From Fibrobacterales bacterium (GTDB lineage Bacteria; Fibrobacterota; Fibrobacteria; Fibrobacterales; JAOPTW01), in contig JAOPTW010000011.1 in the NCBI GenBank assembly GCA_051532035.1, forward strand, positions 62,043 to 126,042: a DNA stretch of 64,000 nucleotides, given 5' to 3'. The notes beneath the pieces were generated by a model. It saw only the letters and a program-made list of their open reading frames with translations. It ran no database searches and was not told the origin of the DNA. Positions 6,806 through 64,000 of the stretch are shown piece by piece. Every line of letters begins with the position of its first letter. Position 1 is the stretch's first letter. A program made the translations under genes and the position numbers.

Positions 6806-7078
6806 AGTGTGCTCTTGGTAAAAGGGCGGTGTTTTAGACAAGAATACTATGTTTTAGGGGCAGAGACCACTGTTTTGGTGAGGTTTTGTGTGGATTTAGA
6901 AGCTTTCCCATTCTGTAGTTGATACCTTTGATGTAGTTTTAGCTTTTTGGATGACATTTAGTTTGTAGCTAATAATGTCCACACAAAAAAAGTAGCTACA
7001 TACTCAAGAACTCTGTTTACACCCCTGTTTTCTATCTTTTTGGACCAATATATCCTATTTCCCTTAAAAAGAGGACAC

Positions 7079-9718
7079 ATGGTTTATAGAAAACTAATGC
7101 CTTTATATATGTTGTTTTTCATATGTATCACTATTTCTTGCACTGAAAACTCAACATCTACAGCTGGAGCTTCACCAGAAGACATACCATCTTCAAGCTC
7201 TGAAATCGACCCCACAAAAGACATTGCCTTTGCAGCAAAAATTGTTCAGTCCGTAGGACAACTACCTACGTGTGATGAAAGTCTATACGGACAACTCTAT
7301 TTTGTTCTTTCAGAAGGTACTTTTCATGGGTGTATGGCCACGGGATATCAAGTAATTAACTTTGCCGGACCACAGGGCGAAACTGGTGCACAGGGGACTT
7401 CGGGAACAAATGGAACATCCTGCAATGCACTATCTATAGCTGAAGGTATAGAAGTTGTTTGTGCTGGTATGGTTATGGATACTATACATAATGGAGTAGA
7501 TGGTACTGACGGTGTAAATGGCCAAGATGGTACTGATGGCGCTGATGGAACAAATGGTATGCATGGTACTCACGGCACAAACGGACTTAATGGGATCGAT
7601 GGAAAAGATGGGATCGATGGCGCAAACGGGACATCATGTACTTCTCGGTCAATTATAGAAGGCACAGAAGTATTGTGTGCAGGTGTTGTTATTGATACAG
7701 TACGTCACGGACAAGATGGTTTTGCTGGTGTTGATGGTCAGGATGGTATAAATGGTGTTAATGGGGAATCTTGTAGCGCTCGTCCTATTACTGAGGGCAT
7801 TGAAGTTTCTTGCGGTGGTATTATTATTGATACTCTTAATCAGGGTGTTGATGGTCAAGAAGGTCAAAAAGGTACGGACGGTATAAATGGTATCAACGGA
7901 ACGAACGGCGTGGCTGGTAGAGATGGCAATGATGGGGCTGATGGAAGCAACGGAGTCAATGGCTCTGATGGAGAAGATGGAGTAGAGGGTGCCGCTGGAT
8001 ATAATGGTATTGACGGTATTGATGGAGCCTCATGTACAGCGCGCACTATCTTAGAAGGTTTAGAAATTTCTTGTGGCAGCGTTGTAGTTGATACCATTCG
8101 TGATGGTACTGCTGGCCAAGATGGAGCAGATGGTCAAGATGGTGTAGCTGGTCAGGATGGAGTTGACGGTCAAGATGGTGTAGCTGGACAAAATGGAGTT
8201 GACGGTCAAGATGGAGCAGATGGTCAAAATGGTGTAGCTGGTCAGGATGGAGTTGACGGTCAAGATGGTGTAGCTGGACAAAATGGAGTTGACGGTCAAG
8301 ATGGAGTAGATGGTCAAGATGGAGTAGATGGTCAAGATGGTGTAGCTGGTCAAGATGGTTCAGATGGCCACAACGGTCGAGATGGTTTGTCTTGTAGTGT
8401 TAATGCGATCGAAGAAGGTGTTGTTATTTATTGTCCTCGACTGGGCTATGATACATTGTATCATGGAGAAGAGGGAATACAAGGTCTCCAAGGACAGGCA
8501 GGCGATTCATGTATGGCTTATCCTATTGCTGAAGGTTCAGAAATTTACTGTGGCAATAGAGTTGTTGATACTATTTATAATGGAGTAGATGGTGTCGATG
8601 GTGTCGATGGTCAAGATGGTGTGGCTGGTCAGGATGGAGTTAACGGTCAAGATGGTGTAGCTGGTCAGGATGGAGTTGACGGTCAAGATGGTGTCGATGG
8701 TCAAAATGGTACTGATGGTGCTAGTATAGAATGGTTAGGTGCACTTGTTACACCTCCAAATACTCCTTTTCTGAATCAGGCTTTTTATTGGTCTACAATG
8801 GGTATTTCGTGTATTTGGGCTGGCAATTCATGGGAATTAATTTCAAAAGATGGTGGAGTAACTGTGACTACTTGCGAAGCTGCTAATGATAGAAATGCAA
8901 TGGCTCCATCAAGAGCTTCAAACTCATGGGATGAGCTAAAACTTGGTGATTTTTACCTACTCAATAATCGTTGGGGCTCAGATGCAACTCAATGTGGGTC
9001 AGACTATGAAATTTATGTTGCTGATGATTATACTTTTGGGTGGGAATTTAGTAGACCTTCTTGTGGTACAGAAAGGCAGCAGGATAGGTATCCAGATTAT
9101 CCATCAATAGTTATTGGGGCATCACCTTTCGAAAAAGTTGAAAGTGATCCAGCCCCTTTTAAATCATCTACCGATCTTTTACCTATACAGGTTGGAGATA
9201 TTGTTTCTGCCCAATTAGAGATCGATGCATTAAATTTGATTCTTGCACAGGACAATCGTTGGATTGTTTCATTAGAATTATGGTTGAGCCGTGAAGACCC
9301 AACAATAAATCGTCAACCAGACCCTGAAGTACAATTGTTATTAATTTTTGGGTGGTCCGATGAATGGTGGCCTTGTAATCAAACAGTTGGGAGGTTTGCT
9401 GAAAATCTTGAACTTACTACTGGTGCACATGATTTTACTCTCTGCCAACAAGAAGATGACTGGGGAGGATGGAGTTACTTTCAGTTTCGTGCAGGTGATG
9501 GTACCGATGCCTTTTCTCAACAATCTATCAATGGAATAATTGATCTAAAAGCTGCTATTGATTGGTTAGTCGCTCATGCGGGAGTATCAACTGACTATTA
9601 TGTTTCTATGCTCACATTAGGTACAGAAATTGATAATAATACTGATGGAGTTGTGACTATTGCCGATCTGACTCTCGAAGTGAATTCTGAATATGGTGGT
9701 ATTGAGTTTGGTAATTAA
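7079..9718 (+). CDS. Lipoprotein with collagen-like Gly-X-Y runs alternating with six Cys-containing modules, and a C-terminal GH12-like domain
   Basis: The track start 7040 is TTG. ATG 7079 has an AAGAGGA RBS and gives MVYRKLMPLYMLFFICITISC (lipobox). There are long GxDGxDG (G-X-Y) runs. The module SC-x9-E[IV]xC[AG]xx[IV][IV]DT[IL] occurs six times. The C-terminal ~290 aa carries GH12-like landmarks: NNRWGSDATQC, YPS, ELWL, LLLIFGW, LGTEIDN. Confidence 0.85.
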   Translation: MVYRKLMPLYMLFFICITISCTENSTSTAGASPEDIPSSSSEIDPTKDIAFAAKIVQSVGQLPTCDESLYGQLYFVLSEGTFHGCMATGYQVINFAGPQGETGAQGTSGTNGTSCNALSIAEGIEVVCAGMVMDTIHNGVDGTDGVNGQDGTDGADGTNGMHGTHGTNGLNGIDGKDGIDGANGTSCTSRSIIEGTEVLCAGVVIDTVRHGQDGFAGVDGQDGINGVNGESCSARPITEGIEVSCGGIIIDTLNQGVDGQEGQKGTDGINGINGTNGVAGRDGNDGADGSNGVNGSDGEDGVEGAAGYNGIDGIDGASCTARTILEGLEISCGSVVVDTIRDGTAGQDGADGQDGVAGQDGVDGQDGVAGQNGVDGQDGADGQNGVAGQDGVDGQDGVAGQNGVDGQDGVDGQDGVDGQDGVAGQDGSDGHNGRDGLSCSVNAIEEGVVIYCPRLGYDTLYHGEEGIQGLQGQAGDSCMAYPIAEGSEIYCGNRVVDTIYNGVDGVDGVDGQDGVAGQDGVNGQDGVAGQDGVDGQDGVDGQNGTDGASIEWLGALVTPPNTPFLNQAFYWSTMGISCIWAGNSWELISKDGGVTVTTCEAANDRNAMAPSRASNSWDELKLGDFYLLNNRWGSDATQCGSDYEIYVADDYTFGWEFSRPSCGTERQQDRYPDYPSIVIGASPFEKVESDPAPFKSSTDLLPIQVGDIVSAQLEIDALNLILAQDNRWIVSLELWLSREDPTINRQPDPEVQLLLIFGWSDEWWPCNQTVGRFAENLELTTGAHDFTLCQQEDDWGGWSYFQFRAGDGTDAFSQQSINGIIDLKAAIDWLVAHAGVSTDYYVSMLTLGTEIDNNTDGVVTIADLTLEVNSEYGGIEFGN
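8104..8385 (+). repeat. Near-perfect tandem 18/36-nt DNA repeats encoding (GVDGQDGVAGQ[DN])n
   Basis: The unit ggtcaagatggtgtagctggtcaggatggagttgac recurs with only a few substitutions. A second block lies at 8578-8715. Confidence 0.9.
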
Positions 9719-9825: not shown

Positions 9826-9885
9826 CTATCTTATTCTCACCATTCAGCTTTTTGGCAAATGGCCGTAGAATAAAGGAATAATACA

Positions 9886-10710
9886 TTGAATACACAAACG
9901 CTGAAAATACCTAATGCACCTCAATCCATTCAAAAAGGGGTTCCTTTAAAGTTACTCTTAGACCAAGAGGCTATTGCCCAATTAGCAGAAAATTTTCAAA
10001 TGGTGTATTCTGAATTTGATACAGCTGGTTTTGTGAAACACGCTATGGAAAATATTACTCCTCTTGGTATAAAAGAGAGAGGTGTACATATCTCTAAAGT
10101 AATGAAAGAATATTTGCCGAATAAATATTCTGATGCAATTAATGTTATTCTTAAATCACTCACTCCACCTTTAGATAAGACAGAAGGAAATGGGTTGGCA
10201 GGTATGTTTTATATGCCGCATTGCAGTTTCATTGCTCAATACGGACTTGATAACTTTGATATTTCTATGCATGCTCAATATGAGTTAACGAAACGGTTTA
10301 CCTGTGAATTCTCAATGCGTCCATACATTAATGATGATGAAAAAAGAACTATGGATGTTCTATATACATGGATGAACGATACTGACCCACATGTGAGACG
10401 GTTATGCTCTGAAGGGACCAGACCTCGATTGCCTTGGGCAACTAAAATAAACTCTTTTGTTAAAGACCCCAGTCCTACCATTATTATTTTAAATCATTTA
10501 AAAAATGATACCGATTTATATGTGAGAAGAAGCGTTGCCAATCATGTTGGCGATATCGCCAAAGACCATTTAGAACTTGCTTTAGAATTGTGTGAGGAGT
10601 GGTTAGTAGGGGCAGATACTCATCTAAAATGGGTAATTCGTCATGCGCTACGAAATCCCGCAAAAAAAGGGAATGTAACGGCTTTAGAAATCAGAAAGAA
10701 TGCAGTATAG
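9886..10710 (+). CDS. DNA alkylation repair protein (HEAT-repeat family, AlkC/AlkD/YhaZ-like)
   Basis: TTG start with AAGGA 8 nt upstream. Motifs DPHVRRLCSEGTRPRLPWA and DLYVRRSVANHVGDIAKDH are typical of the DNA_alkylation (PF08713-type) family. Confidence 0.7.
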   Translation: MNTQTLKIPNAPQSIQKGVPLKLLLDQEAIAQLAENFQMVYSEFDTAGFVKHAMENITPLGIKERGVHISKVMKEYLPNKYSDAINVILKSLTPPLDKTEGNGLAGMFYMPHCSFIAQYGLDNFDISMHAQYELTKRFTCEFSMRPYINDDEKRTMDVLYTWMNDTDPHVRRLCSEGTRPRLPWATKINSFVKDPSPTIIILNHLKNDTDLYVRRSVANHVGDIAKDHLELALELCEEWLVGADTHLKWVIRHALRNPAKKGNVTALEIRKNAV

Positions 10711-44841: not shown

Positions 44842-45141
44842 TTACAGCGCCCTACGCAACTCAGTCATTTGGTCCACTACCTCCTTGCCATCTGTACCCT
44901 CAACCCCCACCGCCTTCAACCTCTTCTTCTTTAAATACTGCAGCCTCGCATACTGGCTATTAAACTCCTTGCGTACTTCTGGGGAGTCTTGAAAGGCTCC
45001 ATCTATCCAGTTTCTAATCTCTCGTTCAGTTGTTCGTAGGAGTGAAATACACTGGTCGCGGATGGTTTTGTAATCAGTTGCTAGTGGGAACGCTCTCCCG
45101 AGTAAGGCAAGTTCTACGATATTTTTCAGCACACCGTCCAT
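44842..45141 (-). pseudogene. Truncated, internally deleted copy of the 272-275-aa multi-copy gene family
   Basis: MDGVLKNIVELALLGRAFPL|ATDYKTIRDQCISLLR..IRNWIDGAFQDSPEVRKEFNSQYARLQYLKKKRLKA matches aa ~152-172 and ~205-262 of 54658..55485. It lacks the N-terminal 150 aa and the central block. Confidence 0.75.
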
Positions 45142-45234
45142 AGTTTTTGGTCGTGCTAGAATTTGTTATAGGTAGCATTAAGGGGACTAATATTTTAGAT
45201 TTAGTAAAGACGTCATTTAACTTGCTCAAAAGTC

Positions 45235-53068: not shown

Positions 53069-53090
53069 TATCTTTTATAGTGCCCGACGT

Positions 53091-53382
53091 AACCTCTCCT
53101 TCCCATCCTTACCTTCAACTCCCTGCGCCTTCAACCTCTTCTTCTTTAAATACTGCAGCCTCGCATACGGGCTATTAAACTCCTTGCGTACTTCGGGGGA
53201 GTCTTGAAAGGCTCCATCTATCCAGTTTCTAATCTCAACTTCAGATTGTCTGAGGAGTGAAATACACTGGTCGCGGATGGTTTTGTAATCAGTTGCTTGG
53301 AACCTCTCTGCATGGGCGAGGACTTTGAGTTCACGGAGTTCTGTTACGAGGGCGTCAGCTTCATCCCAGAGGTGAGTATCAA
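53091..53382 (-). pseudogene. 5'-truncated copy (about the C-terminal 95 codons) of the 272-275-aa multi-copy family; normal stop lost
   Basis: The minus-strand translation ..DTHLWDEADALVTELRELKVLAHAERFQATDYKTIRDQCISLLRQSEVEIRNWIDGAFQDSPEVRKEFNSPYARLQYLKKKRLKAQGVEGKDGK.. is collinear with 54658..55485. Homology stops at gtatcaa|tacctaatgt, exactly where R1 copy c begins. Confidence 0.8.
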
Positions 53383-53470
53383 TACCTAATGTATTCTTCT
53401 AACACAATGTAGGCTCAATTGTGGATATAGGAAAGGGCAAGGGTATTTGTTTGGAGATCGAATAGTGTTT
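53381..53470. repeat. Junction motif R1, copy c
   Basis: aatacctaatgtattcttctaacacaatgtaggctcaattgtgg... matches 43228-43320. Confidence 0.85.
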
Positions 53471-54657: not shown

Positions 54658-55485
54658 CTAAGCCAACCTCTCCTTCCCATCCTTACCCTCAACACCCTGT
54701 GCCTTCAACCGTTTCTTTTTCAAATACTGCTGCCTTGCATACTGGCTATTAAACTCCTTGCGTACTTCGGGGGAGTCTTGAAAGGCTACATCTATCCAGT
54801 TTCTAATCTTAACTTCAGTTGCTCTGAGGAGTGAAATACACTGGTCGCGGATGGTTTTGAAATCAGTTGCTTGGAACCTCTCTGCATGGGCGAGGACTTT
54901 GAGTTCACGGAGTTCTGTTGCGAGGACGTCAGCTTCATCCCAGAGGTGCGTATCAAAAATGACGGGGGAGTTGTCGAGGGGGAGTGCTCTGCCGAGTAAG
55001 GCGAGTTCTACGATATCTTTCAGCACACCGTCCATAGCTTTTGATTTATTAAAAGAGATGATCCGTTTAATATGGCGTGGTTCTTTCATGCACACCAGTT
55101 TTAATATTTTAACCATCTTAGAACGCAGCTCCTTGGCTTCAGGGGCGCGCTGTGTCCAGAGGTCGCGGTCGGTGGTTTCGGTACGTAACTTTTGCTTAAA
55201 GAGTATGTCGGCATGCTGTGCGGCCCGAGACTGCATGATTGCTTTATGCGCGGTCTCTTTGCTAAACCCAAAGGTCTTGAGTGCTTTTAAGTGATTGAGT
55301 GCAGTCTTACCCAGTTCCTCTACTTCAAAGAGGTACGTATCGATACGCATTGAGGGAATGTGGAGTGCATTGGTCGGTTGCGCAGTGATCTCGTCGATAA
55401 TAAGGTCATAACACGCCTCAGGTTGGTCGGGAACCTCAGAGCTGGGCCTGGTATAGGGGCTTTTGCTATCGTTTTTGCTACTCAT
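54658..55485 (-). CDS. Uncharacterised 275-aa helical cytoplasmic protein, multi-copy family, full copy 1
   Basis: GAGGGAG RBS 5 nt upstream of the ATG. aa 1-157 differ at one residue from copy 2 (58202..59020). A central block is divergent and the C-terminal block is conserved. I recognise no catalytic or DNA-binding motif. Confidence 0.8.
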   Translation of the reverse strand: MSSKNDSKSPYTRPSSEVPDQPEACYDLIIDEITAQPTNALHIPSMRIDTYLFEVEELGKTALNHLKALKTFGFSKETAHKAIMQSRAAQHADILFKQKLRTETTDRDLWTQRAPEAKELRSKMVKILKLVCMKEPRHIKRIISFNKSKAMDGVLKDIVELALLGRALPLDNSPVIFDTHLWDEADVLATELRELKVLAHAERFQATDFKTIRDQCISLLRATEVKIRNWIDVAFQDSPEVRKEFNSQYARQQYLKKKRLKAQGVEGKDGKERLA

Positions 55486-55684
55486 GGTGTCTCCCTCGGG
55501 TTAATTCCTACCCATATGTTACTCAATGCTATCCATATTTGGTTGATTCAATATGTCCTTTCGGGAGTGTTCAAAATTCTGTGTAACTAGCGATAATACG
55601 TTGCAGTAAATTAAAACATAATTTTTGTCACAATTTCCCCATTGGATTCGTCTAATATGGTCAGATAATAAGTTTGAATTTTAA

Positions 55685-57913: not shown

Positions 57914-57962
57914 TACGCAGCATTTTTTCTATTCACTGAAGTGGAAAAATGCTGCGTACATT
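57914..57962 (+). terminator. Strong rho-independent terminator
   Basis: 14-bp stem tacgcagcattttt / aaaaatgctgcgta, followed by cattttg. Confidence 0.8.
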
Positions 57963-58201: not shown

Positions 58202-59020
58202 CTAAGCCAACCTCTCCTTCCCATCAACACCCACCGTCTTCAACCGTTTCTTTTTCAAATACTGCTGTCTCGCATACGGGCTATTAAACTCCTTGCGTAC
58301 TTCTGGGGAGTCTTGAAAGGCTACATCTATCCAATTTCTAATCTCGACTTCAGTTGCTCTGAGGAGTGAAATACACTGGTCGCGGATGGTTTTGTAATTC
58401 GTTGCACGGGACCGCTCTACTATAGCGAGCTTTTTGAGATCACGGAGTTCCGTTATGAGGGCGTCTGCTTCATCCCAGATGTGAGTATCAAAAATGACGG
58501 GGGAGTCTTCGAGGGGGAGTGCCCTGCCGAATAGAGCAAGGTCGGTGAGGTCTTTTAACACACCGTCCATCGCTTTTGATTTATTAAAAGAGATGATCCT
58601 TTTAATATGGCGTGGTTCTTTCATGCACACCAGTTTTAAAATTTTAACCATCTTAGAACGCAGTTCTTTTGCTTCAGGGGCGCGCTGTGTCCAGAGGTCA
58701 CGGTCGGTGGTTTCGGTGCGTAACTTTTGCTTAAAGAGTATGTCGGCGTGCTGTGCGGCCCGAGACTGCATGATTGCTTTATGCGCGGTCTCTTTGCTAA
58801 ACCCAAATGTCTTGAGTGCTTTTAAGTGATTGAGTGCAGTCTTACCCAGTTCTTCTACTTCAAAGAGGTACGTATCGATACGCATAGAGGGAATGTGGAG
58901 TGCATTGGTCGGTTGCGCAGTAATCTCGTCGATAATAAGGTCATAACACGCCTCAGGTTGGTCGGGAACCTTAGAGCTGGGCCTGGTATAGGGGCTTTTG
59001 CTATCGTTCTTGCTACTCAT
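58202..59020 (-). CDS. Uncharacterised 272-aa helical cytoplasmic protein, multi-copy family, full copy 2
   Basis: Same RBS and 5' region as copy 1. Mosaic identity pattern relative to copy 1. Lies immediately downstream of the left 21-bp repeat array. Confidence 0.8.
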   Translation of the reverse strand: MSSKNDSKSPYTRPSSKVPDQPEACYDLIIDEITAQPTNALHIPSMRIDTYLFEVEELGKTALNHLKALKTFGFSKETAHKAIMQSRAAQHADILFKQKLRTETTDRDLWTQRAPEAKELRSKMVKILKLVCMKEPRHIKRIISFNKSKAMDGVLKDLTDLALFGRALPLEDSPVIFDTHIWDEADALITELRDLKKLAIVERSRATNYKTIRDQCISLLRATEVEIRNWIDVAFQDSPEVRKEFNSPYARQQYLKKKRLKTVGVDGKERLA

Positions 59021-59029
59021 GGTGTCTCC

Positions 59030-59262
59030 CTCGGGTTAATTCCTATCCATATGCAACGGTTTGCTATAGATATTGGGTGGTTTGCTGTCCATATGTATGC
59101 TGATGCTATCCATATTGGGCAATTTCCTATCCATATGTTGTCGAATGCTATTGGTATGTGCAGGTTTGCTCTACCTATGCAAGCGGATGCTCTCCATATG
59201 TTGTAATTTCCTATCCATAGGTCACTCGATGCTATCCATATTGGGTTGATTCAGTATATCCT
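59030..59262 (-). repeat. Left array: ~11 tandem degenerate 21-bp units (consensus on + strand nnTGCTATCCATATGnnnnnn)
   Basis: The core CCATAT or a one-mismatch variant starts at 59047, 59068, 59089, 59110, 59131, 59152, 59173, 59194, 59215, 59236 and ~59257, an exact 21-bp phase. The copy-1 locus (55505-55560) has only 2-3 units. Confidence 0.9.
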
Positions 59263-59547
59263 TTCTTACCAGTATTGAGTAATTAAATATCTGTTTTTAC
59301 TAAAGATTTATGGATATTCAATGATTGTAAGTCATGCTATCTTAGCTATATCCAAATCTTTATTAAACTATTACCTGTATTCTATAATTCATTGCCAATA
59401 CTCAAAGGTATCAAATATTAAGTATTACTGTCTTATGATTCATATATCATGGTTTAATATAGAGCAACACTATTTAGAATTTTTCTGAGCTAGGCATTTA
59501 GATACTCAGTCCTTACAGTCAACTCATTATCCCTAGGAAAGCTTTAC
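59263..59547. other. AT-rich ORF-free spacer between the two inverted 21-bp arrays
   Basis: About 285 bp, visibly AT-rich, with no ORF of 60 aa or more on either strand. Confidence 0.7.
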
Positions 59548-59885
59548 TCAGATCTGTGACTCCATATGGCAGTAATTCAGGTCGAGTGTGTAGTAAAGCG
59601 TACGCAGATGGTAGGTAATTCGTGAGATATGGGTAGTATTTACTCAGATATTGGTTGTAATTGCCTCAATATGGACGGTATTCTATGAAATATGAGGGTA
59701 AATGAGCACAATAGGGTAGGGATTATACCGGAGATCGTATTGCGGAGACTGTATATGGTATGTAATGACCTGAATAGGGCATGCATTCTATTGAGTATGG
59801 GTGTAAATGAGGTCATTAGCGTCGTAATTGAACTGAATATCGGAGTAAATCACCCAGATTGACACTCAAATGTGTAGAATCTAGG
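59548..59885 (+). repeat. Right array: ~14-16 tandem degenerate 21-bp units in inverted orientation (consensus GTAAWTnnnnnnn(G)AATATGG)
   Basis: The core ATATGG or a variant starts at 59564 (inside the palindrome CCATATGG), 59585, 59606, 59627, 59648, 59669, 59690, 59711, 59732, 59753, 59774, 59795, 59816, 59837, 59858 and 59879, an exact 21-bp phase. AATATGGAyrGyA is the reverse complement of the left-array core. Confidence 0.9.
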
Positions 59886-59934
59886 GGTGGTTTGGAGCAG
59901 GGTGGTGTGTATGGGTGCGTATTAACGGTTCGAG

Positions 59935-60075
59935 GGGGAGTGGATGTTGTCTCTTGTGAATGATGTTGGTTTTTCCGTTGTAATTTGAGGGGGAATTTTT
60001 AGGTTTATGGTGTAAATTTACCTGCTGAGTGATAAGGGTTGTATTGGCTTGCGCATAATTACAACTGAAGTACAC
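59935..60075 (+). repeat. Repeat A, copy 1 (upstream leader shared with 62262-62400)
   Basis: Shared blocks: tctcttgtga.tgat, ttggttt...cgttgtaatt.a..gg.ga, ttacctgctg.gt.at.ag. Confidence 0.7.
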
Positions 60076-60092
60076 CAAAGAAATATTGTAAA

Positions 60093-60503
60093 ATGATGCA
60101 CTTAATATTGACTACTGCTCTAGGATTAATCTGCATATTGACGGGATTAATTAGCTTGAGAAAATACGATAGATTGAATAAAACATCATTCAAGTTTGGC
60201 GTTGCATATATTGTATTTACAGCTATTTTTAATTTCACAATTATATGGCTAGATTCTCAAGGACCCGACAATGGTATAATCATTTCCATGATGGTTTATA
60301 GTATAATAAATTTTCCATTCTCAATAATTGCCTATGCTAATTCGCCCTTAATATGGATGATTTTAATTTACTCTGGTTTAATTGGGACTATCGAATTTGT
60401 CTTGATAGGAAAATTAATAAATAACTTCACTTCAAGAAATGATGATGACGGAAACAGCAAGATAACATCTATATGTCCCCCCAAGTCAAGTGGAAAGCAT
60501 TGA
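60093..60503 (+). CDS. Small membrane protein (cassette gene 1)
   Basis: 136 aa with 4 hydrophobic helices. The last ~13 codons and the stop lie inside conserved module CR1. Confidence 0.6.
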   Translation: MMHLILTTALGLICILTGLISLRKYDRLNKTSFKFGVAYIVFTAIFNFTIIWLDSQGPDNGIIISMMVYSIINFPFSIIAYANSPLIWMILIYSGLIGTIEFVLIGKLINNFTSRNDDDGNSKITSICPPKSSGKH

Positions 60504-60768
60504 TTCCCCTCAAATAGTTTTACTTGACTTCTCACTCCTGAATCTCTTATACGACTCTATGGAAGAGTGAAATGACTTACCAGCGGATATAAGTCATATA
60601 CTCAATAATGTGTATTGTAAGGGAGGCGCTGTAATGCCTCTCTATGGTAGTATCTTTTGAGAATGGCGATAGTTTAATCAGAATGAGCAATCAGAGCTAG
60701 GGAAGGGTACAGCTTCAGTGGGAATTAGCTAGATTATTTGTTATAAATCAACTCTCTGTACAATAAGA
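60464..60768 (+). repeat. Conserved inter-cassette module CR, copy 1 (~305 bp)
   Basis: Left core AACATCTATATGTCCCCCC. IR aagtcaagt(31 nt)acttgactt at 60483-60530. Hairpin atgactta/taagtcat. Hairpin gggaggc..gcctc at 60621-60642. Block 60667-60737 is identical in CR3 and CR4. Right end ctgtaNrATAAGA. Confidence 0.9.
60738..60764 (+). promoter_or_regulatory. Sigma-70-like promoter candidate at the right end of CR1 (TTGTTA-15 nt-TACAAT), facing gene 60783
   Basis: The equivalent positions are TTGTTA-15-TAGAAT in CR3 (63020-63046) and GTGTTA-15-TATGAT in CR4 (63764-63790). All three -10 boxes keep TAnnAT despite substitutions. The spacer is short at 15 nt. Confidence 0.3.
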
Positions 60769-60782
60769 TTTAACTGCGACCT

Positions 60783-61166
60783 ATGATTAAATATTTACTC
60801 ACTTTGCTTTTGACTTGCTCAATTTTTAGCTGTGTCTCCACAGATTCTGAATCCTCTTGTTCTGTGGGAACGCCACTTACGCCTCAATTACAAATAAATA
60901 ACAACATTGACTTACGCCTTTCGGTTATATACGAAAAAATTATGTCCTTCCCAGTGCACTCACTAGATTCTCTAGTTACACTCAGTAGCTTGCCTAGAGA
61001 AGACTCTTTCAAAATATATTTGATTAACCTGTCATCAGAAACCACATCTAAAGATTCAGTCTCTTTTTCAACAATGAGTCATAACAGCTATTATCTAAAT
61101 ATTGATGAAGGGCCGAATAATTCGCTAGAATTTGACATTACCTATAAAGACAAATATTGCGAATAA
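60783..61166 (+). CDS. Small lipoprotein (cassette gene 2)
   Basis: Lipobox LLTCSIFSCVS. 127 aa. Followed at 61190-61208 by a vestigial CR left core (aacatctatagctcccccc). Confidence 0.6.
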   Translation: MIKYLLTLLLTCSIFSCVSTDSESSCSVGTPLTPQLQINNNIDLRLSVIYEKIMSFPVHSLDSLVTLSSLPREDSFKIYLINLSSETTSKDSVSFSTMSHNSYYLNIDEGPNNSLEFDITYKDKYCE

Positions 61167-61549
61167 CTTATTTGCAAAGTGTAGCAGTTAACATCTATAG
61201 CTCCCCCCGTTTATAATCGAGGGGGTTATACAGGTGATTTAAATTTCTTTAGTGCCCCAGTTTAATAATGAGAGTGCTCTATTGTAGATGTATGTTGTGG
61301 GGTACTCTTACCCCATTATTGAGATGTTTAGAGGTAGGGGAGTTTAAAAAAAATGTTCTTATACATCTTATTCAAAAATCATGTAACCTTTTCCAATAAT
61401 AGCGGCGTCAAATCCTTAGAGACAAAAAAAGAATATTTTGCATCTTGGTATTTACTATGAACTTTTACGCGGCTGAGACAAATCCTGACTTAGATTTGGA
61501 TTATTCTACAGCCTCGTATCCCCTCTAGACTAATTCATCATGAGGAAAC

Positions 61550-62062
61550 ATGAAATCCTTCGCAATTATAATCATCCTTCTTTGTTCGAGTCTGTATTCT
61601 AAATCGACCTATCATATGTTTGCTGTTCGCCCCCTAACTATAGGCGATCCTGATGCTAGCCATTTGCTTCCCACTAGAATTGTCTCGTATTATTGTCAGT
61701 ATAAATCACTGGTCTTTGCAATTGAGCCAATCTACATCTTTGATGGGGAATTTGGAAATGCAGGATACGGAGGCTCAACATCAATCATGTTTTTTGAAAA
61801 CGACAGAACTATATTTGCTCCAGGAGCAACTGTCTCTATTCTTAATCCCACTAATGGAAGTATTACACCGGAAATATTTTTTAGACTTCAATTGTTGAAT
61901 TCAAGGAACAAATGGTACTTGTTTGGCATGGAGGCATTGTTAGGGTATGGTCTAAAAAGAATGAATACAACCGCACTTATTCATGATACCGAAGCACAAA
62001 CATCAAGTGGCTTTACGTTTAGATTAGGCTTCGAAATTGGCTTTAAGTACAAACATAGATAA
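61550..62062 (+). CDS. Small secreted beta-barrel-like protein (cassette gene 3)
   Basis: Signal peptide. Alternating strands. Followed 32 nt later by the partial module CR2. Confidence 0.6.
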   Translation: MKSFAIIIILLCSSLYSKSTYHMFAVRPLTIGDPDASHLLPTRIVSYYCQYKSLVFAIEPIYIFDGEFGNAGYGGSTSIMFFENDRTIFAPGATVSILNPTNGSITPEIFFRLQLLNSRNKWYLFGMEALLGYGLKRMNTTALIHDTEAQTSSGFTFRLGFEIGFKYKHR

Positions 62063-62093
62063 AAGAAGAACAAAAATTAACTACAGAGGTGAT

Positions 62094-62176
62094 ACCATCT
62101 ATTTGCCCCCCAAGTCACGTAAAGAATCTTGATTCACCTCAAATTGTTTTACTTGGCTTCTCACTCCTGAATCTCA
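62094..62176 (+). repeat. CR copy 2 (left ~85 bp only), joined to repeat A copy 2
   Basis: accatctatttgccccccaagtcacgtaaagaatcttgattcacctcaaattgttttacttggcttctcactcctgaatctc, after which homology to CR1 ends. Confidence 0.85.
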
Positions 62177-62261
62177 CACTGCTCCCTGCATCGGTAACCT
62201 ATTCTCATATGGCTCTGCTTTCTGTATCAATTGAATGGGCGGTCCGGCATCTTACTGAGGA

Positions 62262-62400
62262 TGGGGAGTTGGGTGGTTTCTCTTGTGATTGATTGTGTAT
62301 TTGTAAGTGAATAGGGGGTGATATTTGGTTTGACGTTGTAATTGAATGGAGGATTAGTAGATTTATTGCATAGACTTACCTGCTGTGTAATCAGAGATAT
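62262..62400 (+). repeat. Repeat A, copy 2
   Basis: See 59935-60075. It lies directly upstream of gene 62406. Confidence 0.7.
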
Positions 62401-62405
62401 TTGGA

Positions 62406-62723
62406 ATGCTTCGACGACCAAAAGAAACTCAATTAGAAAAAGCCGACTTGTTTCCTGTAATAAGGTTTAATTACTTTCCTCTAGTTTTTGCATCAATATT
62501 ACTGCCAATTTTAAGTTTGGGATTTATCAACGTTAGTTATGGTAATAGAAGTAACCTTGATTTAAAGGTATACAGAAAAGTCGTTCGTCAAAAGTATGAA
62601 GTAGAAGAAAGAGGTTTTTACTATTTTAAAGACGGAAAACTAATTCTGCGCCCATTCTTTGGAACAATTGTAGGTGTATTTCTTTTCATAGCTTCGTTTG
62701 GTGTTATGACTTCGATACTATAA
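62406..62723 (+). CDS. Small membrane protein (cassette gene 4)
   Basis: 105 aa with two hydrophobic helices. Unrelated to the other cassette ORFs. Confidence 0.55.
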   Translation: MLRRPKETQLEKADLFPVIRFNYFPLVFASILLPILSLGFINVSYGNRSNLDLKVYRKVVRQKYEVEERGFYYFKDGKLILRPFFGTIVGVFLFIASFGVMTSIL

Positions 62724-62747
62724 GTATTTAGCGCCTAATCGACATAT

Positions 62748-63050
62748 ACCATCTATATACCCCCCCAAGCCAAGTAAAGAATCTTGATTCCCCTCAATTG
62801 TATTACTTGACTTCTCACTGCTGAATCTCTTATATGACTCTATAGTGGAGTGAAATGACTTAACAGCGGATACGCGTCATATACTCAATAATGTGTATTA
62901 TAAGGTGGTGCTATAATACCTCTCTATGGTAGTATCTTTTGAGAATGACGATAGTTTAATCAGAATGAGCAATCAGAGCTAGGGAAGGGTACAGCTTCAG
63001 TGGGAATTAGCTAGATTATTTGTTAGAAATCAACCCTCTGTAGAATAAGA
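62748..63050 (+). repeat. CR copy 3 (full length)
   Basis: Collinear with CR1. The hairpin at 62902-62924 carries a compensatory C-G to T-A change. Confidence 0.9.
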
Positions 63051-63165
63051 GCTAGCCTGCATCTACACCTAATTAATCATTAATTATAAAAAGTTTGAAC
63101 TTTCATTCACATTTTAATATTACCCATCGTCTAAAGATGTATAACATTCAAAAATCAGGAAAAAT

Positions 63166-63504
63166 ATGAAATTATTTACTAAAACAATCATAGGCTTAAC
63201 CTTAATTTGTGCTGTTTTCACTTCAAATACTTATGCAGGAAACACAAGTGGGCAAAAAGTATCAATTAACGAAATCAATTTTAATTCCGGAAGCATTTAT
63301 TTCCAATTAAGCTCTGAAATGTTTGATTGTAAAAATGGTACACACTTAAAACTTAATGAAAATTCAAATAAAGATTTATATGCAGCATTATTAAATACAT
63401 ATGCAACGAATGGAAAACTTATAATTGAATGGGTACATTGCTATGATGGAAGTGTCGGAGACCTAAATTCAGGAACTGGTGTAAAAATTCGATTCAGCAA
63501 GTAA
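63166..63504 (+). CDS. Small secreted protein (cassette gene 5)
   Basis: Signal peptide MKLFTKTIIGLTLICAVFTSNTYA. RBS AGGAAA. 112 aa. Confidence 0.65.
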   Translation: MKLFTKTIIGLTLICAVFTSNTYAGNTSGQKVSINEINFNSGSIYFQLSSEMFDCKNGTHLKLNENSNKDLYAALLNTYATNGKLIIEWVHCYDGSVGDLNSGTGVKIRFSK

Positions 63505-63530
63505 ACCTTGCACCTTACAACAGCAGGCTT

Positions 63531-63794
63531 ACGTCTATATGCCCTCCAAGTCAAGTAAAAAATATTGATTCATCTCAACTGTTTTACCTGACTTCTCACT
63601 TATGAATCTCTTATACGAGTCATATACTCAATAATGTGTATTGTAAGGGAGGCGCTATAGTGCCTCCCTTAGGTGTTATCTTTTGAGAATGGTGATAGTT
63701 TAATCAGAATGAGCAATCAGAGCTAGGGAAGGGTACAGCTTCAGTGGGAATTAGCTAGATTATGTGTTAGAAATCAACCGTCTGTATGATAAGA
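63531..63794 (+). repeat. CR copy 4 (full length apart from a 38-nt internal deletion)
   Basis: Collinear with CR1. It lacks ctctatgg...gatataa, the left arm of the second hairpin. Hairpin gggaggc/gcctccc at 63647-63668 is perfect. Confidence 0.9.
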
Positions 63795-63846
63795 GTTATA
63801 TGGCTTTTGATTACATATTATTTCTGCTCACCAAATAGGATTTGTA

Positions 63847-64000
63847 ATGTCTCCCACTAATAAACTTGGCACACCAAAAGATTTAGATAGTATCACATTA
63901 AACGATGTGCTTGAAAATAAGGTTTGGGTTTGGACCTGGGAAGTAAACCTTGACGAAGAATATGATGAATCCTGGCAGTTGCCTATAATTGGACTTGATG
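63847..64000 (+). CDS. Hypothetical protein, N-terminal 51 codons only (cassette gene 6, runs off the window)
   Basis: Not in the track. ATG 63847 followed by an open frame to the window end (MSPTNKLGTPKDLDSITLNDVLENKVWVWTWEVNLDEEYDESWQLPIIGLD). No signal peptide. Confidence 0.45.
   Translation, partial: MSPTNKLGTPKDLDSITLNDVLENKVWVWTWEVNLDEEYDESWQLPIIGLD

Follow-up and report, generated by a model that had tools for sequence, protein, structure and literature searches.

Inverted 21-bp-phased repeat arrays beside an unannotated, predicted all-α protein in Fibrobacterales: candidate cognate binding-site arrays of a recurrent chromosomal module

The DNA analysed here, referred to throughout as the window, is a 64,000-nucleotide stretch of contig JAOPTW010000011.1 from a Fibrobacterales metagenome-assembled genome (MAG). 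Near its right end lies a minus-strand gene for a 272-amino-acid (aa) protein of an unannotated family, preceded by two arrays of degenerate 21-bp repeats that are inverted relative to each other, flank an AT-rich non-coding spacer and lead into a plus-strand series of short open reading frames (ORFs), here called the cassette array (Table 1). Gene and array together make up a self-contained and closely linked module, found repeatedly in Fibrobacterota, Bacteroidota and a small number of other phyla, and the question addressed is what the arrays are and what may act on them.

Both arms are built on the core ATATGGrTAGnA, and when the plus strand is written in rows of 21 (59026–59900) the left array stands out as a column of CCATATG...TGCTAT from 59047 to 59256. 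A sequence-only reading, made by a model from the letters alone, had counted about 11 left units with CCATAT at every slot from 59047 to 59257; the 21-bp phase stands, but there are 10 units, the slot at 59257 holding none, and the core recurs as the exact hexamer in only six of the ten slots (59047, 59089, 59110, 59131, 59194 and 59236), the other four being degenerate. The right array, put at about 14–16 units, has 16 slots in phase, but exact ATATGG in only four of them (59564, 59627, 59669 and 59753). The mirror-image relation of the arms is borne out by their consensus sequences, as is the palindrome CCATATGG at the inner edge of the right array, located at 59562–59569.

The formal test of periodicity that had been suggested gives a clear answer: the left arm (59035–59256) has a self-identity of 0.50 for lag 21 and 0.60 for lag 42, the right arm (59561–59896) of 0.46 and 0.47, against a background lag identity of ~0.27, and these peaks lie above all 5000 shuffles, the highest of which is 0.39. 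Tandem Repeats Finder (TRF) reports periods of 21, 42 and 84 in the left arm, where two unit subtypes alternate and produce the 42- and 84-bp super-periods, and of 21 in the right arm. Each unit consists of a 10–12-bp core and a 9–11-bp linker, the linker alternating between two types; a clustered regularly interspaced short palindromic repeat (CRISPR) array was rejected, since the units are contiguous and there are no unique spacers of similar length between repeats. The units are only ~65% alike, yet the phase is unbroken by any indel across the 10 + 16 slots (546 bp). A 15-nt position weight matrix (PWM) built from the array units and used with a 9-bit cut-off scores all ten left slots at 9.5 bits or more, and in the right arm 11 of the 16 slots reach the cut-off. 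Outside this locus and the site upstream of the paralogue it finds ~33 matches in the window; with 29 expected over the full 64 kb, that is the level of chance. One further unit, GGTTTATGGTGTAAATTTACC at 60002, lies in the right-arm register, 21 periods beyond. A length of 21 bp corresponds to two helical turns, and the spacing therefore places all sites on one face of the duplex.

Table 1. Features of the window, and arrays at homologue loci with their position relative to the family gene (RBS, ribosome-binding site; P numbers identify family proteins)
Feature or locus	Position	Strand	Description
272-aa gene	58202..59020	-	ORF; unannotated, predicted all-α family; candidate array partner
Leader with RBS	59021..59034	-	Between start codon and first unit; RBS GGGAGA is the complement of 59026-59031
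Proximal (left) arm	59035..59244	-	10 units of 21 bp, zero indels; gene-strand consensus nACATATGGATAGCAAAC
AT-rich spacer	59245..59560	.	316 bp, 29% GC, non-coding
Distal (right) arm	59561..59896	+	16 slots of 21 bp, inverted, zero indels; consensus tnAATATGGgTAGTAAwT
Distal conserved segment	59897..60038	+	Degenerate slots; in-register unit 60002-60022; junction motif CTGAGTGATAAGGG at 60025-60038
Cassette array	60039..64000	+	Short secreted/membrane-protein ORFs; context, membership in the module not established
Paralogous copy	54658..55562	-	275-aa gene (54658-55485), same leader, 2 units (55504-55539) and 21-bp flank
3' relic of gene	53083..53405	-	C-terminal ~100 codons, 88% nucleotide identity, no arrays
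Second, more divergent 3' relic	44884..45165	-	Internal deletion
L128 (P0012)	103 bp downstream, past a terminator-like hairpin		13 units of TGTGAGAA(C/G), exactly 21 bp, 42-bp super-period, plus 2 inverted
L130 (P0016; genome of P0012)	75 bp downstream, past a terminator-like hairpin		9 units of ATATACACAC plus 6 inverted
L125/L126 (P0017; Saccharicrinis)	118 bp downstream		9 units of GCTGAAC, period 21/42
L133 (P0024; Aquimarina sediminis isolate)	36 bp downstream		7 units of (T/A)GCTCACCAT plus at least 1 inverted
L131 (P0009)	85 bp downstream		63-bp (3 x 21) array
L127 (P0006)	232 bp upstream		9 units, CTCTATGTGA alternating with a CTCTGYGAGA variant, spacing 21/20 bp
L134 (P0021; Bacteroidales MAG)	224 bp upstream		8 units of CCTAAGAGA, spacing 21/20 bp
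L132 (P0008)	168 bp upstream		2.2 units
L124 (P0003; MAG of the window)	upstream		Faint 21/42 signal only
L122 (P0002; MAG of the window)			No array

The linkage between gene and array extends to distant homologues. The DNA around 10 homologues was examined, giving 11 independent loci when the window is included together with L001, a second copy of its module described below; the proteins are mutually 19–37% identical, and some of the contigs, being from MAGs, may be mis-binned. Arrays phased at 20.5–21 bp, with 42- or 63-bp super-periods, lie within 250 bp of the family gene in nine of the 11 loci (window/L001, L125 from Saccharicrinis, L127, L128, L130, L131, L132, L133 and L134), whose proteins share only 20–37% identity. 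The array is downstream of the gene in five of these nine, with a terminator-like hairpin between gene and array in at least three loci (L125, L128 and L130), and an inverted second arm is present in four: the window, L130 (9 + 6 units), L128 (13 + 2) and L133 (7 + at least 1). Most homologue loci lack an AT-rich spacer. Counting TRF arrays with a score of at least 50 and periods of 20–22, 40–43, 61–64 or 82–85, the 25.7 kb that lie no more than 1 kb from a family gene contain 11, and the other 166.6 kb of the same loci three, an enrichment of ~24-fold (0.46 expected; Poisson P=3e-12).

The cores are specific to each paralogue (ATGGATAGCA, TGTGAGAAC, ATATACACAC, GCTGAACAGC, CTCACCAT, CCTAAGAGA and CTCTATGTGA), and those of the two paralogues in one genome (L128 and L130) differ from each other, which argues for a specific partner that co-varies with the array rather than for a shared host factor; the covariation of core with protein similarity can be followed in only a few loci, among which all pairs are 19–37% identical. 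Some cores, read from the sequences, are palindromic (CCATATGG, GCTGAACAGC and TGTGA-N11-TCACA). At both L128 (9138–9177) and L130 (7017–7058), counted from start to start, exactly 32 bp separate the last direct unit from the first inverted one that follows it, and the cores are unrelated. The two Saccharicrinis strains are 99–100% identical throughout; in them (L125/L126, 5474–9195) the family gene, its array, an AAA_35 ATPase gene and a 165-aa ORF make up a ~3.7-kb block among menaquinone genes, with menA/menC/menE on one side and menB/menD/menF on the other, which looks like an insertion.

Tandem duplication of 21-bp units could in principle leave such arrays as selectively neutral, satellite-like sequence, and the window units are indeed degenerate. 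A metagenome scan with the pattern ATATGGNTAG-N11-ATATGGNTAG found phased arrays in four of 120 contigs, L015 and L032 (Ga0123353/Ga0123352), L021 and L027, which have long, near-perfect 21-bp arrays with CCATAT or ATATGG and no family gene; these are likely to be unrelated satellites, some of them possibly eukaryotic. A neutral origin of the arrays studied here is nevertheless very improbable, given their enrichment near family genes across phyla with always the same period, the lack of a single indel in 546 bp of diverged repeats, the better conservation of right-arm cores than of linkers (below) and the recurrence of inverted second arms.

The 272-aa protein itself has no match in Pfam, PHROG or PADLOC, and no PADLOC model matches the family; searches of the Protein Data Bank (PDB) by sequence and profile also gave no match. 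Against the NCBIfam model NF052641 ('PQLLE family') it scores 16.4 bits, the curated cut-off being 80 bits, and it is thus not a member; in a 40-sequence alignment of the two window proteins and 38 top matches, 31 members match NF052641 far below the cut-off (best E 2e-10), and on sequence grounds the two families are distantly related. Among 5.8 billion proteins a word-index search retrieved nothing but the query, and metagenome and viral scans for relatives of the protein found none, but HMMER, run over 1.84 billion cluster representatives, brought up 180 relatives, 230–300 aa long, at E<1e-3. These are mostly from Bacteroidota and Fibrobacterota, and all named members are annotated as hypothetical: they include Marinilabiliales (Saccharicrinis, Maribellus, Draconibacterium and Labilibacter), Aquimarina and Fibrobacterales, as well as MAGs of Spirochaetota, Aminicenantes and Acidobacteriota and one labelled Hyphomicrobiales. 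Several genomes carry three or more divergent family paralogues, and the MAG of the window has at least five family genes or relics in addition to P0002, P0003 and P0026. With the 40-sequence alignment as input, AlphaFold2 (AF2) predicts a protein of helices only, including a 55-residue helix at 180–234, with a predicted local distance difference test score (pLDDT) of 93.5 and a predicted template modelling score (pTM) of 0.83; from the single sequence the pLDDT is 45. No description of the family, or of its linkage to arrays, turned up in Pfam, PADLOC, PHROGs, Rfam, the names of NCBIfam models or the literature searched.

The arrays are non-coding as far as protein is concerned: a heptad-repeat coding sequence was ruled out, as most arrays have stop codons in all six frames, the left arm of the window among them, and no spacer ORF is shared. 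At the level of RNA, the arrays could be transcribed and then cut or bound as 21- or 42-nt units by the adjacent protein, in the manner of a type III toxin–antitoxin (TA) system such as ToxIN, CptIN or TenpIN. Those systems likewise consist of a tandem array beside a single gene, in some cases with a hairpin, and each has its own repeat sequence; here the repeats also adjoin a lone protein gene with a hairpin in between in at least three loci, the 42-nt super-period is near the 36–40 nt of ToxI, CptI and TenpI repeats, the two window arms read outward from the spacer give the same sense motif, and some homologues have neighbours of a defence type, namely TIR_2 and an AAA_15/AAA_21 and DUF4276 pair in L130 (359–5571) and GmrSD in L128 (9851–11647). 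However, the period is 21/42 rather than 36–40 nt and the units are degenerate, their ~65% likeness being unlike that of antitoxin repeats, which are nearly identical, transcribed ahead of the toxin gene and folded into a pseudoknot unit. Folding is no better than that of shuffled sequence (z = −0.7 for the left arm and −1.4 for the right; a third RNA fold test gave z = +1.5), so that no RNA structure is predicted. A known RNA family was also rejected, there being no Rfam match in 58.9–60.9 kb even at E<=1. The predicted all-α protein is not of the ToxN/AbiQ type, PADLOC gives no match, and an invariant 21-nt period over unrelated sequences, inverted arms and a variable position and order of array and gene are not expected of RNA units. 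Action through RNA is hence considered unlikely.

The constancy of the period over diverged sequence, together with an array position that may be upstream or downstream, agrees better with a constraint set by the DNA helix and a linked cis site than with a co-transcribed RNA. More broadly, the two-turn period, tight linkage, free order, inverted arms, palindromic cores and absence of RNA structure argue for a cis-acting DNA site with a co-varying partner, and linkage without fixed order is typical of co-inherited pairs of site and factor such as ori/rep, parS/parB, att/int or transposon end/transposase. The interpretation that we favour, with a probability of about one half, is that the arms are cis-acting, paralogue-specific and helically phased arrays of binding sites for the linked all-α protein, which is most likely, judging from the sequence comparisons, to be the array binder; any one particular biological output is rated as less probable than this cognate reading at the level of DNA. 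The earlier proposal of a nucleoprotein assembly site with the 272-aa protein as its binder thus gains from the array linkage in distant homologues, although the specific roles suggested for it fare unevenly and no helix-turn-helix (HTH), ribbon-helix-helix (RHH) or Rep fold has come to light.

How such a module might work can be outlined for the window. Starting at the RBS of the 272-aa gene, the proximal arm would provide sites that reach into the AT-rich region, and the inverted distal arm would continue from there towards the first cassette. If the protein formed a cooperative filament along each arm, or a complex that bridged the two, the divergent control region would be covered, and arm occupancy may set the expression of the 272-aa gene and of the downstream cassettes. 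As the proximal arm fills the interval between RBS and spacer and the distal arm runs towards the first cassette, binding along both arms would be expected to control the divergent transcription units, which makes transcriptional control the candidate output here. An elongated helical protomer, whose modelled 55-residue helix would measure ~80 Å, may match the 21-bp (71 Å) footprint. An autoregulatory operator, as had been suggested, is plausible in this locus, where the array abuts the RBS, but not as a general function, with the array downstream in five of nine loci and past a hairpin in at least three.

Several observations weigh against this interpretation. Since the array is so often downstream, a regulatory output cannot be the general role of the module, and long arrays are dispensable for retention of the gene, as L122 has none, L124 a faint signal and the second window copy two units. 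The 11 loci come from the upper end of a single hit list and are a non-random sample. In the left arm, which shows only 13 differences between the window and L001, cores are no better conserved than linkers. The HTH, RHH or Rep-like fold that was to be looked for in the 272-aa protein is not recognisable in the AF2 model, a long helical bundle; the model also lacks a winged helix, and Foldseek gave no meaningful structural neighbour in either the PDB or BFVD (best E 0.25, TM-score up to 0.43). Furthermore, the family has a median isoelectric point (pI) of 6.0, most members being acidic to neutral, and only two near-invariant arginines; the pI of the 272-aa window protein is 9.3.

The module exists in a second complete copy of 1.85 kb on another contig, from a Fibrobacterales MAG (L001, JAOPTX010000072.1). 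Homology between the two runs from the stop codon of the gene to 60038, inside the motif CTGAGTGATAAGGG. The gene is 92% identical, the leader 100%, the left arm 94%, the spacer 86%, the right arm 87.5% and the distal segment, to which an element at 62263–62394 is related, 90%. In the right arm the two copies diverge by 9.4% in cores and 18.8% in linkers (Fisher P=0.02). The leader stretch (59021–59039), identical in both, is also found in the paralogue at 55486–55504, and the first left unit does begin some 10 nt from the RBS of the gene, as had been noted. Mismatches in the spacer are concentrated in 59294–59525, its edges being nearly invariant, and the edge at 59245–59265 is retained even beside the two-unit paralogue. 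No ORF in the spacer is conserved between the copies, in agreement with its description as an AT-rich, ORF-free region; it is presumed to be the site of divergent promoters, and a promoter scan gave only weak sigma-70-like matches. The L001 gene copy (9826–10660) has an in-frame TAA at codon 116, where the window has GAA, and the arrays adjoining it are as well preserved as those of the window.

The paralogous copy within the window encodes a protein 91% identical to the 272-aa protein and has neither spacer nor distal arm. Relative to the main copy it shows a clean deletion of eight units (168 bp), and homology stops at the spacer edge; its array, thought to keep two or three units, is indeed shortened and has exactly two, both strong by PWM (16.1 and 16.6 bits). 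The 3' relics, including one in L001 (12160–12261), keep the stop-codon end of the gene and have lost the 5' part and the arrays, and each heads a different plus-strand gene group. The region around the 272-aa gene is a mosaic of repeated rearrangements. Between the 3' end of this gene and a 732-aa ORF lies a 22-nt near-perfect palindrome (TACGCAGCATTTTTTC.../...GAAAAATGCTGCGTA, 57914–57958), probably a bidirectional terminator for the convergent genes.

Inverted arms around a probable promoter region also suggest an invertible switch, in which recombination between the arms would flip the spacer and unequal exchange would alter the number of units, resulting in phase-variable expression of the gene or of the cassettes. 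The difference in array length between copies, 10 units against 2, is indeed a whole multiple of 21 bp, and the 42- and 84-bp higher-order repeats show past unequal exchange. On the other hand, the spacer points the same way in both copies, no invertase gene was found, the arms of L128, L130 and L133 abut (~10–35 bp between them) and so leave nothing to invert, and a switch would leave the family-wide linkage and the constant period unexplained. It is accordingly rated as quite unlikely.

The geometry of the arrays invites comparison with iteron-containing replicons (P1 oriR/incC-repA-incA, F oriS, R6K and RK2 oriV), which share direct repeats of ~17–22 bp at two-turn spacing, arrays of variable length on either or both sides of the binder gene and in both orientations, and an AT-rich stretch. 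Partition centromeres are similar in other respects: the 12 x 43-bp repeats of F sopB-sopC recall the ~42–43-bp super-period, the phased array adjoins the binder gene, on its downstream side in sopC and on its upstream side in parC, and in parC (R1 parC, pB171 parC1/parC2) two clusters flank a promoter. If the module were an origin of replication or a partition centromere, belonging to a plasmid-like element that has integrated or degenerated, this would account for the ~21–22-bp units, the arrays on either side of the gene, the inverted sets and the stretch of 29% GC, the rep gene of P1 and F being flanked by iteron sets and sopC lying just downstream of sopB.

The setting, however, is chromosomal. 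The window contains genes for GH8 and GH26 glycoside hydrolases, chemoreceptors, a GGDEF protein, a caspase-domain protein and an 1841-aa adhesin-like protein, and the homologue loci adjoin glycoside hydrolases, chemoreceptors and housekeeping genes. No family member was found by tblastn in 72,556 plasmids, 50,697 phages or IMG/VR. Cumulative GC skew, proposed as a check for origin activity, rises monotonically with no switch at 59 kb, and no DnaA box with at most one mismatch is present in 59–60 kb. The plus-strand unit CTATCCATA (59042–59050 and its repeats) matches the Escherichia coli DnaA box TTATCCACA at seven of nine positions, and the L130 unit ATATACACA (6849–7037) matches the R2-type box TTATACACA at eight of nine; as the cores of other paralogues are unlike DnaA boxes, this likeness is probably a coincidence. 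The helical bundle has no Rep_3 or winged-helix match, and the protein does not belong to the ParB-type HTH or the RHH proteins. No Rep_3, ParA, ParB or ParR-like gene adjoins any of the 11 loci, and no ParA/ParM/TubZ nucleotide triphosphatase was found among the called neighbours of the homologue loci or the ORFs flanking the window module. Several paralogues per genome, several copies and relics within 15 kb and the rarity of an AT-rich spacer add to these differences. Both the origin and the parC-type centromere that the sequence-only reading had entertained are thus disfavoured, and this kind of function is regarded as distinctly improbable.

Downstream of the module, the cassette array consists of ORFs of 105–170 aa, mostly with signal peptides or transmembrane helices (window 60039–64000; L001 8350–8830). 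Most of them are followed by a hairpin element, AAGTCAAGTAAA...TTTACTTGACTT, and then by one of two upstream elements ending in CTGTnnrATAAGAG; the junction motifs lie at 60025, 60756, 62383, 63038, 63782 and L001 8831. A 186-nt inter-cassette element occurs three times (60587–60772, 62869–63054 and 63613–63798), is 78–91% identical with ~100 nt almost invariant, and contains a hairpin, GGGAGGCGC/GTGCCTCCC, with one compensatory change and no Rfam match; it could be a conserved promoter, a 5' untranslated region or a small RNA. An early impression that array units lie inside it failed at the 9-bit threshold of the PWM. The arrangement is integron-like, yet without an integrase or attC cores, and a cassette shared by the window and L001 stands at different positions in the two. 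The window has no tRNA genes and no Rfam matches at gathering score, and near its left end an 892-aa ORF (7040–9718) has 9-, 18- and 90-bp periodicities that encode Gly-X-Y triplets (collagen-like, GDG/GQD).

The homology of the two module copies ends exactly at the junction motif CTGnnTGATAAGrG, which also closes the conserved element before at least four other cassette ORFs, and the first cassette after the module in L001 is the one that starts at ~63796 in the window, 3.7 kb further down the array; the module therefore heads a shuffled array of genes for short secreted proteins. This raises the possibility of an integron-like platform, with the distal arm and the segment to 60038 as an attI-like site and the arrays as accessory sites. 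As in an integron (intI-attI-Pc with attC cassettes), a divergent gene and control region head an array of promoterless-looking short ORFs, conserved inter-ORF elements share a junction motif, and the first cassette differs between copies of the platform; the 3' relics at 44.9 and 53.1 kb and the different cargo of each copy further attest to repeated rearrangement. However, the 28 ORFs scanned (the 272-aa protein and 27 others of the window) include no tyrosine, serine or DDE recombinase and no Rep or Par protein. The 272-aa protein lacks a recombinase fold, and the inter-cassette elements, of 100–330 bp, have none of the R''/L''/L'/R' cores of attC and none of its RYYYAAC/GTTRRRY motifs. Homologous recombination between conserved elements of 100–300 bp can explain the shuffling, and at the homologue loci the arrays adjoin ordinary genes, as judged from Pfam tables, their DNA not having been searched for cassette motifs. 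An attI-like role is possible in this genome, where the module ends at a cassette junction, but with no recombinase and with ordinary neighbours elsewhere we think it improbable. Transposon ends of the Tn7 (TnsB sites) and Mu (attL/attR) kind likewise have several ~22-bp sites that are inverted between arms, but three or four per arm rather than 10–16; here the arms are 316 bp apart or abutting and are not the ends of an element, and neither a DDE transposase (rve) nor an AAA+ regulator gene was found.

With binding of each array by its own linked protein as the favoured reading, the architecture, a linked protein and an array of phased sites, is one known in kind, and the family and its array linkage are apparently new. 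Phased arrays linked to the gene of their binder are the basis of plasmid copy control, of partition and of several recombination systems; in the present case this architecture comes with a family that has no annotation, known fold relative or plasmid or phage association, and that occurs as several paralogues per chromosome, each with its own repeat. Tentatively, and with less confidence than is placed in the cognate reading itself, the family and its often two-armed arrays may represent an undescribed class of chromosomal protein/DNA-array module in the Fibrobacterota–Chlorobiota–Bacteroidota (FCB) group and beyond, distinct from replicon, partition, integron, TA and transposon systems. Such a module could be a DNA-coating or bridging filament that silences or insulates variable genes, or the core of a new cassette-capture system. 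As there are cultivated carriers (Aquimarina sediminis, with the homologue WP_103070388, Maribellus comscasis, with GM418_21630, and Saccharicrinis), the hypothesis is directly testable. If the protein binds its array, it would offer a new scaffold for DNA recognition, with a set footprint of 21 bp and specificities that nature has already diversified, and, for Fibrobacterota and Bacteroidota, would provide a handle on how islands of variable secreted-protein genes are controlled or organised.

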